Positions 5,554 through 12,243 of a DNA stretch of 32,000 nucleotides are shown here, in pieces. The DNA lies in contig JAHFQZ010000001.1 in the NCBI GenBank assembly GCA_023259055.1, positions 575,931 through 607,930 of the forward strand, given 5' to 3'. This stretch comes from Nitrosomonadales bacterium (GTDB lineage Bacteria > Pseudomonadota > Gammaproteobacteria > Burkholderiales > Gallionellaceae). The stretch's first letter is position 1; each line of letters opens with the position of its first letter. The notes below the pieces were generated by a model. It was given only the letters and a program-made list of their open reading frames with translations, was not told where the DNA came from and ran no database searches. The position numbers and the translations under genes are program-made.

Positions 5554-5809
5554 AGCCGCAGGTTTCCAACTCTTCCGCTTACAGGCAGGGCTGATGCCTG
5601 CCGACTGGAAGCCGATGCTGAATGTCGGCGCAGGCGCTTGTGAGATTCGCGTCCACGCCTTGGGCGAATGGCGTGTCATCTATGTAGCGAAATTCGCCGA
5701 TGCAGTCTATGTGCTGCATGCCTTCCAGAAGAAAACGCAGCAGACGCGCAAGGAGGACATCGCGCTGGCAAGCGCCCGCTACAAGCAACTCAAGGAAAGT
5801 GCGAAATGA
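5549..5809 (+). pseudogene. 5'-truncated HigB/RelE-ParE (Gp49-like) toxin remnant
   Basis: C-terminal two-thirds only: (FRLQAGL)MPADWKPMLNVGAGACEIRVHALGEWRVIYVAKFADAVYVLHAFQKKTQQTRKEDI. Homology runs upstream of the annotated ATG (5594) to within about 20 nt of the eamA stop, where the frame closes (TGA 5546-5548). The roughly 30 N-terminal residues normally present are missing. Confidence 0.7.
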
Positions 5810-6097
5810 AAAAAGAAAAATTCAAAGCCACCGATTCCTGTGGCAACGTATTTATCGACCTCGGCTTCTCGCCGGAAGAAGCCACCATCCTCGCCATGCG
5901 CTCCCAACTGATGGGCGAACTGCGCATCAAGATTCGCGACATGGGATGGACGCAAGCGAAGCCGACCAAGTGCTCGGCATTTCGCAATCGCGCGTCTCCG
6001 ACCTGATACGCGGCAAGTTCGAGAAGTTCAGCCTGGACATGCTGATTACCTTGGCGACCGTGCGGGGAAAAAAGCAGAACTCAAGCTGGCGGCGTGA
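5806..6097 (+). pseudogene. XRE/HTH antitoxin (HigA-like) with two single-nucleotide frameshifts
   Basis: ATG 5806 overlaps the toxin stop (ATGA). Frame 1 reads MKKEKFKATDSCGNVFIDLGFSPEEATILAMRSQLMGELRIKIRDMGWTQA. After a 1-nt loss near 5958 the HTH continues in another frame (EADQVLGISQSRVSDLIRGKFEKFSLDMLITLATVRGKK). A second 1-nt loss in the A6 run at 6068-6073 restores the natural end AELKLAA-stop (TGA 6095-6097). Confidence 0.7.
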
Positions 6098-6156: not shown

Positions 6157-6186
6157 TTGACACTACCCGCCAAACTCAAATACAGT
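6157..6186 (+). promoter_or_regulatory. Sigma70-like promoter candidate upstream of the ORF6N array
   Basis: TTGACA (6157-6162), 18-nt spacer, TACAGT (6181-6186), about 125 nt upstream of ORF6N copy 1. Sequence match only. Confidence 0.25.
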
Positions 6187-6309: not shown

Positions 6310-6852
6310 ATGAACCAAGGGGACGCACTGAGCATGATCACATCAGTGGCACAGATCGAATCGAGGATGTTTCTCATCCGCGGGCAGAAGGTCATGCTCA
6401 GCCAACACCTGGCCGAATTGTATGAAGTCGAGCCACGGGCGTTGAATCAAGCGGTCAAACGCAATATCGAGCGCTTCCCGAAAGACTTCATGTTTCAACT
6501 TACGGAAGAAGAGGATGCACTTCTAAGGTCACAAACTGTGATCTTAAAAACAGGGCGGGGGCAACATCGTAAATACCTGCCTTATGCCTTCACCGAACAG
6601 GGTGTCGCCATGCTTTCCAGCGTCCTGCACAGCGAACGCGCCATTCAGGTCAACATCGAGATCATGCGTGCCTTTGTGCGACTGCGGCAGATGCTCGCCA
6701 CCAATGCCGAGCTTTCCCGCAAACTCATCGCCCTTGAAAAGAAATACGACATACGTTTCAAAGCCGTCTTTGAAGCCATCCACGACCTGATGAGCCCGCC
6801 AGAAAACAAAAAGAAACGCCCCATCGGCTTTACATCGTGGGAAAAGAAATGA
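6310..6852 (+). CDS. ORF6N (KilA-N-related) domain protein, copy 1
   Basis: 180 aa. [59 protein letters not shown] and [10 protein letters not shown] match the ORF6N family pattern. Start could also be ATG 6334. Confidence 0.8.
6524..6546. repeat. Coding-embedded inverted repeat, ORF6N copy 1
   Basis: TAAGGTCACA / AAC / TGTGATCTTA: 10-bp arms with one G:T (G.U in RNA) position. Encodes LRSQTVILK. Confidence 0.8.
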
Positions 6853-7211
6853 CACAGCCCGCCGCCAACCCGCTCTCCGCCAGCGAACCTTGGAGCCTCG
6901 TCGCCGACGGCTGCGCCGAATTCTGGGACAACGTGGTCAAGGGCATCCGCCCCGACAGCACACGCACAGCCCGTCGAACCACATTCGAACACCACATGCG
7001 AAGAACTATGGCGCGAGAAAGAACAGCTTGCGCCAGCTTGGCTGAACTTTATGGCGTACCGACCAAGCGTTTCAATGAACAAGTCAGGAGCAATCTGGAA
7101 TGGCTCCCGGAGGAATTTATGTTTCATCTTACCAATCAGGATCTTAACGTCTTGAGGTCACAATTTGTGACCTCAAGTTCGGATGCTTGGTTAGGGGTGG
7201 GGGTTAAATGA
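6849..7211 (+). pseudogene. Chimeric remnant: methyltransferase-like N-terminal fragment fused to an ORF6N core fragment (copy 2)
   Basis: ATG 6849 overlaps the copy 1 stop (ATGA). The first ~60 aa ([26 protein letters not shown]...) resemble the extreme N-terminus of class I methyltransferases (by recollection only). From ~7035, SLAELYGVPTKRFNEQVRSNLEWLPEEFMFHLTNQDLNVLRSQFVTSS is ORF6N. It lacks both the N-terminal IRGQKV block and everything after the palindrome. Confidence 0.6.
7151..7177. repeat. Coding-embedded perfect palindrome, ORF6N copy 2
   Basis: CTTGAGGTCACAA-T-TTGTGACCTCAAG: 13-bp perfect arms. Encodes LRSQFVTSS. ORF6N homology ends immediately 3' of it. Confidence 0.9.
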
Positions 7212-7275
7212 CAATCACAAGAAAACGTGATCTGCCGCCGATTGCCCATAGCTTGCCGGCCCCGGTTTATTTCAA

Positions 7276-7854
7276 ATGAGCGCATCCACTCTGCTTCCGC
7301 TCGAATCCATTACGCACCGCATCCTGATGCTGCGCGGACAAAAGGTTTTGCTGGATAGTGATTTGGCGGCGCTCTACGACGTGCCAACCAAGCGGTTCAA
7401 CGAGCAGGTCAAACGTAACCTGGAGCGATTTCCAGCAGACTTCATGTTCCAGTTAACCGAGGAAGAATGGGAATCTTTAAGGTCGCAAATTGCGACCTTA
7501 AAGCCCGGTCGCGGCCAACACCGGAAATATATGCCTTATGCCTTTACCGAGCACGGAGCAATCATGGCAGCAACGATCCTGAACAGCCCAAGGGCGACCG
7601 AGGTGTCGGTCTACGTGGTGCGCGCCTTCGTGCGCCTGCGCGAAGTGCTGGCATCGAATGCGGAATTGGCAAAGCGTCTGGATGATCTGGAGCGGACAAC
7701 CGAAGCACTGGCGATGCAGCACGACTCCTTTGCACGCAATACGCGCGCTCAACTCAAGCAGGTGTTCGATGCCATCCGGGAGTTGATGACACCGCCCGAG
7801 CCAACGAAGAAACGGCCTATCGGGTTTATCAGCGGCGAGGAGAAACCGAAGTAG
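7276..7854 (+). CDS. ORF6N (KilA-N-related) domain protein, copy 3
   Basis: 192 aa. [61 protein letters not shown]-terminal coiled-coil-like tail ending KKRPIGF, as in copy 1. Confidence 0.8.
   Translation: MSASTLLPLESITHRILMLRGQKVLLDSDLAALYDVPTKRFNEQVKRNLERFPADFMFQLTEEEWESLRSQIATLKPGRGQHRKYMPYAFTEHGAIMAATILNSPRATEVSVYVVRAFVRLREVLASNAELAKRLDDLERTTEALAMQHDSFARNTRAQLKQVFDAIRELMTPPEPTKKRPIGFISGEEKPK
7475..7503. repeat. Coding-embedded perfect palindrome, ORF6N copy 3
   Basis: CTTTAAGGTCGCAA-A-TTGCGACCTTAAAG: 14-bp perfect arms. Encodes LRSQIATLK. Differs from copy 2 by two paired (compensatory) substitutions. Confidence 0.9.
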
Positions 7855-8002: not shown

Positions 8003-9409
8003 ATGAAAATTACAAAACTTCATGCTGAGAACGTACACGGCTATCTTCCAATTGACGTCACCTTTTTTGACGATCTTACTTTCCTTACTGGCTTAAATGG
8101 CTCGGGTAAAACATCTGCGCTTCGTTTATTAATGGCACTACTCACGCCAAATATAAATGAGCTTGGTGCGATTTCTTTTTCTTTGGCAGAAGTCACAGTT
8201 ATGGACAATGATCGTGAGATTGTTGTTACTGCAAAAAAAAATAACGACGGCATCGAACTTCGAATCAGCACAAATAGCGAGGCACTTACAATTGCTAACT
8301 CAGACCTTGAGCTACTTATGGAATCGAATCGCGGCGAAGAACCTCGATCACAAAAACGGGAAAAATATCAGTCAAGCTCGGTTTTTAACGAAATCTCAAA
8401 AATGTCCACACCAATGTTTTTGGGTCTAGATCGACGTTTCTATGTTCCAGGTTCATTCACTGACGAACATGATGATATACGGCGGCACGAATATATGGCC
8501 AGAAGGTATTGGGCAGATGATTCCTCATCACGCAGTGCAACTCCTATTACAAGCCTAGTTGAGGTGAATTATTTAGTTGTTACTTGTATGCAAAAAATTA
8601 GAGCTTCACAAGAGCAACTCGACGAGCGTCTGCGGGGGCAATTCTTAACAAAAGCTTTTGAATACAAGCCAAGCGATGTTTTTGCTGGGACAGTCAAAAT
8701 CCCATCCCGTACCGAACTGAATCGTTATCGACAACAACTTTCAAAGATTGAGCAAGCTGCGGAAGGTGTAAAAATACCCGTACCTGAAATACAAGCCTCT
8801 CTTGCTCACTTTTTTGAAAGAATGAGCCTCGTAGTAGATTCGTTGGAAAAAAGTGCGAATGCACCTAAACCAAAAAAATCCTCAAAACGTCCAACTGATA
8901 AAACAACGGAAGCTGCGCTTTTTGATAAAGACTATGTTGAATGGATTATTAACAGGCCACAAGCAGATCGAATCCTTGAACACCTTCAGTTGTTAAATGA
9001 ATATATTGAAAACCGCAACGCCCTCAGAGACCCCATCAACAGATTTGGTAAGCTGGTAAATAATTTTTTTGCTCAAACAAAAAAGGAAGTGATTGTTGCA
9101 CCTAACGGTCAACTTTCAGTTGTAGTCGGAGCTCAAAAGCCAAGTTCAATAAATGCGCTATCCTCTGGTGAGAAACAACTACTAGTGATGCTTGCGCATC
9201 TGTCGCTCAATCCAAACTTGGCGGGTAGCGGGGTATTCATCGTTGATGAACCAGAGCTGTCACTTCATCTTGATTGGCAGGAAAAGTTCGTGGATGCAAT
9301 ACGGGAAGCGAATCCAAAAGTTCAACTTATCTTAGCTACTCATTCCCCTGCCATAATTTTAGATCGTACGGAAGCATGCCGAACTTTGAGTGAGGTATCA
9401 CATGCTTAA
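8003..9409 (+). CDS. ABC/SMC-like defence ATPase (AAA_15/AAA_21-type), AriA-like
   Basis: 468 aa. Walker A GLNGSGKTS, long helical insertion, ABC signature LSSGEKQ, Walker B VFIVDEPELSLH, H-loop ATHSP. AAGGAA SD upstream. AT-rich cassette. Confidence 0.75.
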   Translation: MKITKLHAENVHGYLPIDVTFFDDLTFLTGLNGSGKTSALRLLMALLTPNINELGAISFSLAEVTVMDNDREIVVTAKKNNDGIELRISTNSEALTIANSDLELLMESNRGEEPRSQKREKYQSSSVFNEISKMSTPMFLGLDRRFYVPGSFTDEHDDIRRHEYMARRYWADDSSSRSATPITSLVEVNYLVVTCMQKIRASQEQLDERLRGQFLTKAFEYKPSDVFAGTVKIPSRTELNRYRQQLSKIEQAAEGVKIPVPEIQASLAHFFERMSLVVDSLEKSANAPKPKKSSKRPTDKTTEAALFDKDYVEWIINRPQADRILEHLQLLNEYIENRNALRDPINRFGKLVNNFFAQTKKEVIVAPNGQLSVVVGAQKPSSINALSSGEKQLLVMLAHLSLNPNLAGSGVFIVDEPELSLHLDWQEKFVDAIREANPKVQLILATHSPAIILDRTEACRTLSEVSHA

Positions 9410-10265
9410 ATGGCCTGATCGCGCAATATCTGCAATAAGGAAGCTCTTTGAACCCTTGCAAGACATAGATGTATATGTGGAAGATGCCCACGATGAAGCG
9501 TTTTATCGATGCCTACTAAACTCAGCAACAAGAAATAATGATGTGAAGGTGGCTCGAGTTTTTGCTTTGGGAGGTAGGCAACCTGTTATTGATGCCGCAA
9601 AGATTCATGACCAAAAAACTAGACGAGCACTGTTCATTATTGATGGAGATATATCGTGGGTAAAAGGTGAAGCAATTCCATCAATGGTCGGCTTGCATTG
9701 CCATGATGCATATTGCGTTGAAAATCTACTTTTATGTGAAAAGGCACTGACGCTCCTCCTATCACAAGATACCGCAATTACTGAAGACAAAGCCGCCGAT
9801 CGTTTAGCCTATGTCAAATGGATTCAATCTATCGAACTTCATTTGATTGAACTATTTTCAGCTTTTGCCACCGTCCATTATTTTGATCAGACCGTAAAAA
9901 CGGTTGCTCAAGGGGTGGGGGTTATGTGTATCAAACACCGCTCAACGGGCACGACTGAACTTGATCCAAGTAAAGTACGCGCCGCCAAAGATAAAGCTCT
10001 AAAATCGGCTGAGAAAGTAGCAGCCCCAGACGCAATATCAGAAGTTTATGACCGTATGCTCAATCGCATAAAAGGTCTGCATAATCCACTACATGCCGTA
10101 TCCGGCAAAGACTTTCTTATTCCGCTCCTCGATTTTCACTTGCAATCTTTTGGCTGCCGCATCAAACGAAAGGCACTGCGAATTCGATTGGCCAGTGCTG
10201 GCGATCCTATGCGTTTCGAAGCCCTTGCTGATGCTTTGAATCGGGCAGCAAGAGGCTATACCTAG
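9402..10265 (+). CDS. DUF4435/Toprim-like nuclease, AriB-like
   Basis: 287 aa from ATG 9402 (GAGG at 9392-9395; 8-nt overlap with the ATPase stop; the ORF-track GTG 9390 is less likely). VYVEDAHDEAFY (conserved Glu) and FIIDGD (DxD) in Toprim order. Confidence 0.7.
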   Translation: MLKWPDRAISAIRKLFEPLQDIDVYVEDAHDEAFYRCLLNSATRNNDVKVARVFALGGRQPVIDAAKIHDQKTRRALFIIDGDISWVKGEAIPSMVGLHCHDAYCVENLLLCEKALTLLLSQDTAITEDKAADRLAYVKWIQSIELHLIELFSAFATVHYFDQTVKTVAQGVGVMCIKHRSTGTTELDPSKVRAAKDKALKSAEKVAAPDAISEVYDRMLNRIKGLHNPLHAVSGKDFLIPLLDFHLQSFGCRIKRKALRIRLASAGDPMRFEALADALNRAARGYT

Positions 10266-10425: not shown

Positions 10426-12243
10426 ATGGCCACCCTGATCCCCACCCTCGGCACCGCTCGCTTCGATGCGCGCGGTGAATTACGTCTAGCCGAACGGCTG
10501 AAGGATTGCCTCGAAGACAACGCCTGGGTGTGGCACAACATTCCGGTCGGGCCATTCGGCAGGCATCCCGATTTCGTGGCGCTGCATCCGCAGCAGGGCA
10601 TTGTGGTGTTGGAGGTGAAGGATTGGCGGCTGGATACGATAGGAGATGTAAATAGCAAGCAGGTCGAGTTGATAACTGATCGCGGTAATGTGTGGACTGA
10701 CAACCCCTTCGAGCAGGTGCGCAACTACATGTTCAACGTGGTGGATACGTTGAAGCGCGATCCGCTGCTGGTCAACGATGGTGGTAGCTTCAAGGGTAAG
10801 CCGGTATTTTCTTTTGGGTACGGCGTGGCATTCGCCAACATCACGCGCAAGCAGTTCGAGCAGACCAATTTGCGAGATGTATTCCCGCCGGAGCGCTGCA
10901 TCTTCCGCGACGAGATGGCAGAGAAGGTGGATGCTGATGCGTTTCGCGAGCACGTCTGGCGCATGGCATCGCCGCGCATCGGGCCTGCATTGTCGCTGCC
11001 GCAGATCGACCGGGTGCGCGCGCGGCTGTTCCCGGAGATTCGCGTCACCCAGATTGCGCTGCCGTTTGACGAGCCGCCTTCCGATGCCTCGCCCGCCGAT
11101 GACCGCATGCTGGAGGTGATGGACATGCAGCAGGAGCTGCTGGCGCGCAGCATGGGCGAGGGACACCGTATCGTGCGCGGCGTGGCTGGCTCCGGCAAGA
11201 CGCTGATCTTGGCGTTCCGCGCCGAGCAGATCGCACGCGCGGCGAGTCGCCCGGTGCTGCTGTTGAGTTACGCGAACGGCATCTCGGGTCGGTTGGAGAA
11301 TGCGATGCAGGACAGAGGGGTGGAGGATAAGGTGATCACCTCGACCTTCCATGCCTGGTGCTTCAAGATGCTGCGCGAGTACGACCTACCGCAACCGAGC
11401 GAGAAGGATTTTCCCGACTTTTCGGAGCGGCTCGCCGCCAGCGTGCAGGCCGTGCTCGATGCCGCCGAGCGCGGATTGATCCCGGGCGGGCAGTACGACG
11501 CAGTGCTGATCGACGAGGCGCACGACTTCGAACCGCAATGGCTGGCGCTGGCGGCGAAGATGGTCAACCCGGACACCAAGGCGCTGATGATCGTTTACGA
11601 CGATGCGCAGGCGATTTACAAAGGGCGCAAGCGCCCGGTGTGGAAGCAGCTCGGCATCGAGGCCGCCGGACGCACGACGGTGCTCAAGGTGAATTACCGC
11701 AATACCGCGCAGATATTGCGCTTCGCGCGCAAATTCGCCGCCGATGTGATCGGCGCACCTGGCGTATGCGCCGGTGACGAGAGCGCGATCCTGATGCCGG
11801 AAGACGGCGGGCGCGAAGGCGTGGAGCCAGTGGTGCGCCAGTGCGTGAGCTATGACGGCGAAGCACATGCGATTGCGGAATGGTTGCACGGACGCAAGGC
11901 CGCCGGTTACCAGTGGGGGCAGATGGCGGTGCTGTATCCCCGGCATTTCATCGGCGAGCGCTTCGAGAAAATACTGGCGAAATCCGGCATACCGATTAAC
12001 GTGGCAAAAGATCATGGCAACCGCATACAAACGGAGCGGGACGAGGTGCGCTTCCTCTCCATGCACAACGCCAAAGGACTGGAGTTCCCCTGCGTAGCAA
12101 TAGGCGGATTGGGTGAGCTAAAGAAGGCTGAGGATATAGAAGATGACATACGCCTGACCTACGTCGCCATCACGCGCGCCACGCACGAGGCATTCATCAC
12201 TTACTCGAACATGTCCGAACTTGTGGGGCGGTTGGTGGTGTAG
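10426..12243 (+). CDS. NERD/PD-(D/E)xK nuclease domain fused to SF1 UvrD/Rep-like helicase
   Basis: 605 aa. N-terminal HPDFVALHP...GIVVLEVKDW. Helicase motifs GVAGSGKT, VLIDEAHDF, IVYDDAQAIY, VNYRNT, SMHNAKGLEF, YVAITRATHE. GC-rich. No SD; preceded by a C/T-rich tract. Confidence 0.8.
   Translation: MATLIPTLGTARFDARGELRLAERLKDCLEDNAWVWHNIPVGPFGRHPDFVALHPQQGIVVLEVKDWRLDTIGDVNSKQVELITDRGNVWTDNPFEQVRNYMFNVVDTLKRDPLLVNDGGSFKGKPVFSFGYGVAFANITRKQFEQTNLRDVFPPERCIFRDEMAEKVDADAFREHVWRMASPRIGPALSLPQIDRVRARLFPEIRVTQIALPFDEPPSDASPADDRMLEVMDMQQELLARSMGEGHRIVRGVAGSGKTLILAFRAEQIARAASRPVLLLSYANGISGRLENAMQDRGVEDKVITSTFHAWCFKMLREYDLPQPSEKDFPDFSERLAASVQAVLDAAERGLIPGGQYDAVLIDEAHDFEPQWLALAAKMVNPDTKALMIVYDDAQAIYKGRKRPVWKQLGIEAAGRTTVLKVNYRNTAQILRFARKFAADVIGAPGVCAGDESAILMPEDGGREGVEPVVRQCVSYDGEAHAIAEWLHGRKAAGYQWGQMAVLYPRHFIGERFEKILAKSGIPINVAKDHGNRIQTERDEVRFLSMHNAKGLEFPCVAIGGLGELKKAEDIEDDIRLTYVAITRATHEAFITYSNMSELVGRLVV

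Follow-up and report, generated by a model that had tools for sequence, protein, structure and literature searches.

Several binding sites of proteins are known to lie within coding DNA. In phage lambda, the iterons of ori-lambda are located inside gene O, and each of them is an inverted repeat bound by a dimer. Similarly, parS is found inside parB/spo0J, and the auxiliary operators lacO2 and galOI are intragenic, in lacZ and galE, respectively. The present analysis concerns a 32,000-nucleotide stretch of the genome of a Nitrosomonadales bacterium (contig JAHFQZ010000001.1, positions 575,931 to 607,930, hereafter the window), in which palindromes are embedded in genes of the ORF6N family (PF10543). 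It revealed selection on these palindromes at the nucleotide level, a signal of the DNA type and a coupling between their bases and the residues of a predicted protein helix. Judging from sequence comparisons, each palindrome probably acts in cis at the level of the DNA, as the cognate site bound by the ORF6N protein encoded by the same gene.

As in the case of lambda O, the proposed sites lie inside the coding sequence of their own binder, which must accommodate them: they cover codons 67-76 of one ORF6N gene of the window (copy 3) and the homologous codons of another one (copy 1). As in the cases of parS, lacO2 and galOI, they would be palindromic protein-binding sites in coding DNA, parS being moreover carried by the gene of its own binder. 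However, lambda O is a replication initiator whose four iterons stand beside an AT-rich unwinding region, whereas ORF6N genes usually carry one site, found at a fixed codon position across a whole branch of the superfamily and in two reading frames. Origin features (several iterons, AT-rich region, replication genes) were not found at this locus: there is one site per gene, the neighbours are toxin-antitoxin and defence genes, and the neighbours of the homologues are heterogeneous. ParB differs in being a CTP-dependent spreading and partition protein with another fold, and lacO2 and galOI differ in being imperfect and in lying in structural genes rather than in the gene of the regulator. In none of these three systems are helix and site known to co-evolve family-wide inside one reading frame.

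The window proteins match PF10543 and KilA-N/antirepressor models, which relates them to the KilA-N/Bro-N/APSES superfamily (including Rha-like regulators). A Foldseek comparison of the AlphaFold2 (AF2) model of copy 3, computed as a DNA-free monomer, with BFVD retrieved phage KilA-N DNA-binding and antirepressor proteins (E 1e-6 to 8e-4, predicted structures). By contrast, the searchable papers on this superfamily describe neither an embedded palindrome nor a recognition code. A first reading of the window from its letters alone (hereafter the sequence-only reading) had considered the palindrome as undescribed for the ORF6N family; in agreement with this, no description was found in the literature on ORF6N, KilA-N, Bro-N and PDC-S05, a candidate anti-phage gene considered below. 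Nor was any paper on a helix/base rule for ORF6N found in the searchable literature on KilA-N/Bro-N/ORF6N.

The sequence-only reading reported three ORF6N paralogues in the window, each with an inverted repeat inside the coding sequence. The three repeats were recovered with exactly the same coordinates and pair counts Table 1, as were the two double changes that separate copy 2 from copy 3 (TTG/TCA to TTA/TTA and TCA/GTG to TCG/GCG). They overlie equivalent codons (LRSQ-x-x-T-x-x) of three PF10543 frames. The description of the genes themselves has to be amended: copies 1 and 3 are full genes, whose protein identity of 55% agrees with the earlier estimate of roughly half, but copy 2 is a decayed fragment and not a full paralogue. 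Membership of PF10543 was defined as a profile hidden Markov model match above the curated gathering score of 27.8 bits, and all three frames pass it (115.3 bits for copy 1, 116.3 bits for copy 3 and 51.7 bits for the copy-2 fragment). The match of copy 2 spans only its residues 66-114 (profile positions 15-63), and this frame has lost the family-invariant R47, R51 and F52. Three matches of a degenerate 19-nt pattern were found in the window for 0.05 expected from shuffles, and palindromes of this kind are rare genome-wide; therefore, the three palindromes cannot be attributed to chance. Odd-centred palindromes whose arms reach 10 bp or more number 21 in the whole 2.6-Mb genome, most of them terminator-like and two of them ORF6N sites, and no further ORF6N-type site with at most two mismatches was found elsewhere in it. 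A fourth ORF6N copy, diverged and probably truncated, is present on another contig of the same genome (L003, G000:C3:139863-140102); the outer 6-bp arms (TGAAAT...ATTTCA) are all that remains of its palindrome, the central part being lost.

The prevalence of the palindrome was then assessed on ORF6N genes gathered with their DNA from one genome per species, a 300-genome phylum sample, metagenomes and viral contigs. Of the 12 Watson-Crick pairs possible at the homologous spot (pairs 2-13), at least 10 are present in 204 of 213 distinct genes from many phyla: all 12 in 109 genes (51%), 11 in 70 and 10 in 25. Pairing drops to about 50% at pair 14 and reaches background by pair 16. The centre being chosen as the best palindrome inside the domain, these counts are slightly biased towards pairing; mapping of the site by protein homology alone, which is free of such a choice, places a palindrome at the equivalent codon in almost every match. 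In an alignment of 146 sequences, 96.1% of the cells pair versus 77.2% in shuffles (0 of 500 as high) and 27-45% in slid controls, and double-sided changes largely outnumber the expectation (305 versus 57). The sequence-only reading had called for a codon-aware null. This null, in which amino acids are fixed and synonymous codons are drawn from local usage, proved decisive: 4.95 of 14 pairs are expected versus 12.5 observed, and all 70 loci lie above their expectation. Taken together, the double-sided changes, this excess of pairs and the conservation of the core in a second frame (see below) bear out the earlier claim that the nucleic-acid site itself is under selection. Only seven relatives were found on viral contigs, indicating that this subfamily is mainly chromosomal.

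The amino acids found at the palindrome codons follow the DNA. Arg is encoded by AGR in 57 of 58 cases (7.1 expected), Ser by TCA in 45 of 51 (5.9 expected), Leu by TTA in 15 of 16 (0.7 expected) and Gln by CAA in 54 of 68 (25.8 expected), and the rare codons imposed by the palindrome include AGG, TCA and TTA. Facing codons occur as matched variants: TCG/GCG, TCA/GTG, TTG/GCA and TGC/GGC at codons 70/73, and AGG/ACC, AGA/ATC, ATG/ACA and AAA/ATT at codons 69/74. In 29 genes (frame B, as opposed to the usual frame A), the core GGTC(G/A)CAA-N-TTG(C/T)GACC is offset by one base from the usual reading frame and is translated as ..EVVANCDHL.. instead of ..LRSQIATS... Furthermore, a distant ORF6N clade carries a different palindrome, GTCCGAA-T-TTCGGAC, at the equivalent position. 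It is therefore the nucleic-acid element that is conserved and not the peptide. Besides the usual single site, one ORF6N frame (L121, G114:C285, ~435-520) carries the palindrome-encoding motif in tandem (..LKTQSATSNPGLKSQNGTSNPSLRSQ..), and another locus (L116) has a second copy of the motif 12 nt past the domain.

The signal looks to be of the DNA type rather than of the RNA type. Real RNA stems tolerate G.U far better than A.C. Here, G.T and A.C mismatches number 19 versus 46 in frame-A genes and 16 versus 2 in frame-B genes, with no consistent strand bias; the mismatches follow coding constraints. Complementarity reaches pair 2, and pair 1 in 64-76% of the sites; in a hairpin, these positions would sit in the loop or close it. 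Of 38 non-coding copies, 37 have A or T as the centre base; next to the centre, CAA is favoured over CAG, and the spacing of the half-sites is fixed (5-nt spacer in 174 cases compared to at most six for any other spacing). The two segments that appear to be read by the protein are 12 bp apart; this separation and the C-terminal helices of the AF2 model (105-171) would suit a dimer sitting on one face of the duplex. An Rfam scan gave no meaningful match, the best one on the site scoring 16 bits for a gathering score of 87.

The palindrome is most likely the DNA site of the protein itself, because the residues of its predicted recognition helix predict the bases of the site. Residue numbers given hereafter are those of copy 3 (the helix of copy 1 was placed by alignment to the AF2 model of copy 3), and positions pN are counted outward from the centre. 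The dinucleotide p5p4 shares its highest mutual information with residues 43, 40 and 44 (z = 54, 36 and 27; next column 10), and p8p7 with residue 39 (z = 21.5; next column 7). Residues 39, 40, 43 and 44 occupy positions i, i+1, i+4 and i+5 of the AF2-predicted helix 38-47. A G is found at p4 in 84 of 87 sequences with R40 versus 2 of 105 without it, at p5 in 13 of 14 sequences with R43 versus 1 of 178 without it, and at p7 in 133 of 134 sequences with K39; the significance of such 2x2 tables ignores relatedness and the sequences are related, so that nominal statistics overstate it. The resulting classes associate (i) TCGC with K-R..E-Q, (ii) TCAC with K-(V/A)..Q-A, (iii) TGCC with A..R-A, and (iv) TTGC with R..Q-Q, while p8-p7 is GG with K39 and GA or AA with R39. 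Contacts of Arg or Lys with G, and of Val or Ala with the methyl of T, are classical in the major groove of B-DNA.

Residue 43 alone predicts p5p4 in 89% of held-out loci (training on one collection, testing on the others), compared to a baseline of 33% and to 35-52% for control residue pairs. The rule trained on frame-A genes is correct for 21 of 24 frame-B genes, whose palindrome encodes other amino acids; therefore, the coupling is to the bases and not to the encoded residues. On a tree built without the helix columns, all independent contrasts on supported branches agree and none is opposite. In the window, copy 3 (K-R-E-Q helix, GGTCGC site) and copy 1 (R-A-Q-A helix, GGTCAC/GATCAC site) are as the rule predicts. 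The exception is the copy-2 remnant, which has a K-R-E-Q helix but a TCAC-type palindrome. This palindrome fits the specificity class of the copy-1 protein rather than that of its own remnant and may now serve as a free-standing site. Of the three roles that the sequence-only reading had offered (operator for the ORF6N DNA-binding domain, mRNA hairpin, recombination or cleavage hotspot), the first one is thus the best supported.

Two further observations concern the helix. In the distant clade (L124-L141, several genomes of the phylum sample; VIEYRGKRVVTF...), the site GTCCGAA-T-TTCGGAC or GACGAA-T-TTCGTC accompanies ..ARKRF.. or ..(S/G/K)RNF.., respectively, in the presumed helix; this is effectively one contrast, and it suggests that this clade follows the same helix/site principle. 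In the window, the DNA encoding the helices (..CAG GTC AAA CG.., 7404-7414 and 6450-6460) contains GGTCAAAC, which is like the half-site GGTCRCAA minus two bases and may be a coincidence.

From these data, we infer actual binding, the geometry of a dimer and a regulatory outcome as follows. The ORF6N protein would probably dimerise through its long C-terminal helices and insert helix 38-47 (TKRFNEQVKR in copy 3) into the major groove at both half-sites. There, it would read p4-p5 and p7-p8 through contacts such as Arg40/G4, Arg43/G5, Lys39/G7 and Val or Ala40 with A:T at p4. The helix codons precede the site by about 80 bp in a common reading frame; specificity and target are therefore inherited together and can co-evolve. 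The site would be written over a helix end and a disordered loop (residues 67-80), where the protein could tolerate the residues and rare codons required by the DNA; in copy 3, the palindrome codons correspond to the end of AF2 helix 62-71 and to the low-confidence loop 73-80. The most likely use would be autoregulation together with cross-regulation between paralogues. Copy 3 (K-R-E-Q) would read its own GGTCGC site, and copy 1 (R-A-Q-A) would read its own G(G/A)TCAC site as well as the perfect GGTCAC site of the copy-2 remnant, 112 nt upstream of copy 3.

Sites of this type are also found outside genes. The search revealed 38 extra perfect palindromes of the ORF6N type in about 30 of about 215 loci. 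Most are bare and two or three accompany a recognizable gene remnant; they lie in non-coding DNA, mostly 60-240 nt upstream of the domain start or just beyond the gene end. One locus (L045, 2831-2944) has three of them, with cores TCGC, TCAC and TCAC and a 43-44-nt spacing; the 270-bp intergenic promoter region that holds them separates a methylmalonyl-CoA mutase gene from an ORF6N gene carrying a TTGC-type internal site. Moreover, the palindrome outlives the gene, as seen in the copy-2 remnant with its 13 perfect pairs and in a congener of the Nitrosomonadales bacterium (G315). In the homologous locus of this congener, the ORF6N genes are gone, and a 63-nt piece with a perfect GGTCAC palindrome survives (L237, G315:C6, ~134548-134610, homologous to window 7125-7187), which abuts the 3′-terminal 93 nt of a copy-3-like gene. 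The stretch around the promoter-like site of Table 1 is 95% conserved in G315, where it lies upstream of this solo palindrome. G315 has a single ORF6N gene, located on another contig, whose helix is of the matching R-A-Q-A class; the internal site of this gene and the solo site account for all TCAC-type sites of that genome.

Several results weigh against a simple operator read by a dimer. Positions p9-p13 vary freely and remain complementary (p10: 173 of 173, with G:C in 124 and A:T in 47), with no protein column covarying with them. Natural operators are rarely perfect palindromes, and a dimer bound to duplex DNA has no need for self-complementary outer arms. Sites of the same locus (L217, L193, L148, L182) share a common core but have differing self-complementary outer arms. 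Only 18-22 of the 38 extra sites match the helix class of an ORF6N gene of their locus, for a chance level of roughly 40%, and besides the copy-2 remnant, there is no promoter-proximal copy in this genome. Phylogeny-aware contrasts are few (5, 3, 2 and 4 pairs; sign test p ~0.06 at best). Finally, the PDB gave no sequence match and no significant fold match, and no protein-DNA complex of a close relative was found. The simple operator failing to explain the outer arms, three options are left for them: a hairpin or cruciform, template switching, or contacts of the outer bases with the palindrome-encoded residues themselves, a possible arrangement that would be beyond the reach of covariation.

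The first of these options, as an explanation of the whole element, is that intrastrand pairing of the arms is selected as a DNA hairpin or cruciform, the extruded stem being read by the ORF6N helix or by another factor. We regard it as rather unlikely, but it accounts directly for the near-perfect complementarity over 12-13 pairs, including p10 and p13, which vary freely without any protein correlate, and for the common core and differing self-complementary outer arms of the extra sites of L217, L193 and L148. The AT-rich centre CAA-W-TTG, kept even in non-coding copies, would ease extrusion, the equal rarity of G.T and A.C fits a cruciform in which both strands fold, and the predicted free energies of the single-stranded DNA hairpins are -5.3, -13.8 and -15.4 kcal/mol for palindromes 1, 2 and 3, respectively. 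Baculovirus BRO proteins, which are Bro-N relatives, reportedly prefer single-stranded DNA. However, pair 1, which is impossible around a 1-nt loop, is complementary in most sites, and together with the preference for CAA over CAG this fits dyad symmetry of a duplex better. For a cruciform to be extruded in vivo, 13-bp arms are short; moreover, read segments 12 bp apart suit a dimer bound to a single face of B-DNA, and template switching in quasi-palindromes could symmetrise the arms without any hairpin function.

An mRNA hairpin that would, for instance, control translation, be processed by RNase or be bound as RNA by the protein is very unlikely. Such a role would be compatible with the location in a transcribed coding region, with the stable fold expected there and with the possibility that some extra copies fall in 5′ untranslated regions. 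It is disfavoured by the lack of enrichment of G.U over A.C and of any consistent strand bias, by the lack of an Rfam family match, by complementarity extending through the would-be loop, by the absence of a U-tract after the stem and by the persistence of solo sites where the gene is gone. In addition, the Arg/G and Val or Ala/T couplings are typical of the reading of the B-DNA major groove.

We give hardly any credence to a recombination, integration or cleavage site that would shuffle or mobilise ORF6N cassettes, although the surroundings of these genes could evoke it. Tandem ORF6N arrays are common (the window, L008, L047, L074, L078), the gene lies among unrelated housekeeping neighbours and varies between congeners, gene remnants end near palindromes (copy 2, G315) and some genes have palindromes on either side (L193, L148). 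However, a maximum chi-square scan of 18,167 gene pairs placed only 2 of 152 strong cases at the palindrome. The mosaic junctions lie some 270-300 nt downstream, where the domain meets the C-terminal tail, leaving the hotspot proposed by the sequence-only reading unsupported. Furthermore, no recombinase is consistently adjacent, and the helix/base coupling would be left unexplained.

It is just as improbable that the palindrome is a mere mutational by-product, with template switching copying changes between the arms in the absence of selection and function: this correction of quasi-palindromes is an established hotspot mechanism in Escherichia coli and would explain perfect symmetry at positions that no residue reads, also in decayed or non-coding copies, but it fails on the maintenance of one homologous spot across phyla, in two frames and against codon bias, on the conserved core and A/T centre, on the fixed half-site spacing and on the tight coupling to helix residues encoded about 80 bp away. 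Template switching is plausible as a contributing force only. An intrinsic terminator was also considered and ruled out, since no T-run that would give a U-tract follows the stem (the 3′ sequence is AAAG or AAGT); the terminator scan reported no terminator-like site at any of the three palindromes.

Table 1. ORF6N copies, palindromes, predicted recognition helices and promoter-like site of the window (positions in the window)
Feature	Position	Strand	Description
Promoter-like site upstream of copy 1	6157..6186	+	TTGACA-18-TACAGT; consensus scan only
ORF6N copy 1	6310..6852	+	180 aa, full-length; Pfam PF10543 E=1.5e-33; PADLOC PDC-S05 E=1e-56
Predicted recognition helix of copy 1	6433..6465	+	P42-N52 (R43 A44 L N Q47 A48); R-A-Q-A class, which goes with G(G/A)TCAC half-sites
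Palindrome 1 (copy 1)	6524..6546, centre 6535	+	TAAGGTCACA-AAC-TGTGATCTTA; 10 pairs, one of them G:T (pair 7: 5′ arm GGTCAC, 3′ arm reads GATCAC)
Copy 2, open frame with decayed ORF6N fragment	6837..7211	+	Similarity confined to ~7032-7178 (profile positions 15-63)
Palindrome 2 (copy 2)	7151..7177, centre 7164	+	CTTGAGGTCACAA-T-TTGTGACCTCAAG; 13 perfect pairs; GGTCAC type; 112 nt upstream of the copy-3 ATG
ORF6N copy 3	7276..7854	+	192 aa, full-length; Pfam PF10543 E=7.6e-34; AF2 predicted local distance difference test (pLDDT) 80
Predicted recognition helix of copy 3	7387..7416	+	T38-R47 TKRFNEQVKR; K-R-E-Q class, which goes with GGTCGC half-sites
Palindrome 3 (copy 3)	7475..7503, centre 7489	+	CTTTAAGGTCGCAA-A-TTGCGACCTTAAAG; 14 perfect pairs; GGTCGC type; codons 67-76 of copy 3

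The ORF6N copies belong to a small defence island that comprises, in this order, an EamA transporter gene, a Gp49/HigB-like toxin gene with a helix-turn-helix (HTH) antitoxin gene, the three ORF6N copies, a PARIS-like AriA/AriB pair, a NERD-UvrD helicase gene and a radical-SAM gene. Among congeners, only the EamA flank is kept in place. The toxin-antitoxin pair (Gp49/HigB-like, then HTH_37/HTH_3 antitoxin-like, 5594-6095) lies just upstream of the ORF6N array, and the promoter-like site of Table 1 is the only such element on the + strand between this pair and the end of copy 3; in G315, a different toxin-like gene precedes the same conserved intergenic stretch. Immediately after the ORF6N genes (8003-10265), an AAA_15/AAA_21 ATPase gene and a gene encoding a DUF4435 protein overlap by 20 nt; their PADLOC matches (AriA E=5e-34, AriB E=3e-19) identify them as a predicted PARIS-like anti-phage pair. 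The next gene (10426-12243) encodes a NERD nuclease domain fused to a UvrD-type helicase and matches the PADLOC candidate C3a187 (NERD+UvrD, E=1e-129). No conserved partner gene was found among the upstream and downstream neighbours of 66-69 homologues, which are heterogeneous and often housekeeping genes; ORF6N is therefore a solo, promiscuously placed gene rather than a member of a fixed operon.

The ORF6N genes may themselves be related to defence. The PDC-S05 models of PADLOC match copy 1 (E=1e-56) and copy 3 (E=2e-54), and a preprint (10.1101/2024.09.26.614923) reports ~1000-fold protection against T7 and T5 by one PDC-S05 representative. However, the protective representative is described there as a RhuM-domain protein, and the window copies are candidate PDC-S05 genes by profile match.

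Beyond the operator itself, ORF6N genes could be self-addressed units in which a helix and a palindrome about 80 bp apart co-evolve according to a readable code (R40/G4, R43/G5, K39/G7), giving rise to many orthogonal specificities in candidate defence genes, and in which a perfect, hairpin-capable symmetry extending beyond base reading reflects either cruciform or hairpin use or symmetrisation by template switching; we consider this broader proposal as evenly balanced between right and wrong. If true, the conserved motif LRSQxxTS(K/S) of this very common domain would mostly reflect the translation of a DNA element, which would change the reading of its conservation in Pfam. Residue-to-base contacts would, as in few other cases, be readable directly from genomes, providing a testable code for the poorly understood KilA-N/Bro-N/ORF6N superfamily and an entry point to the control or action of PDC-S05, a common candidate anti-phage gene. 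Overall, these genes would offer a clear natural case of selection at the nucleotide level overriding both codon usage and amino-acid identity inside a gene.

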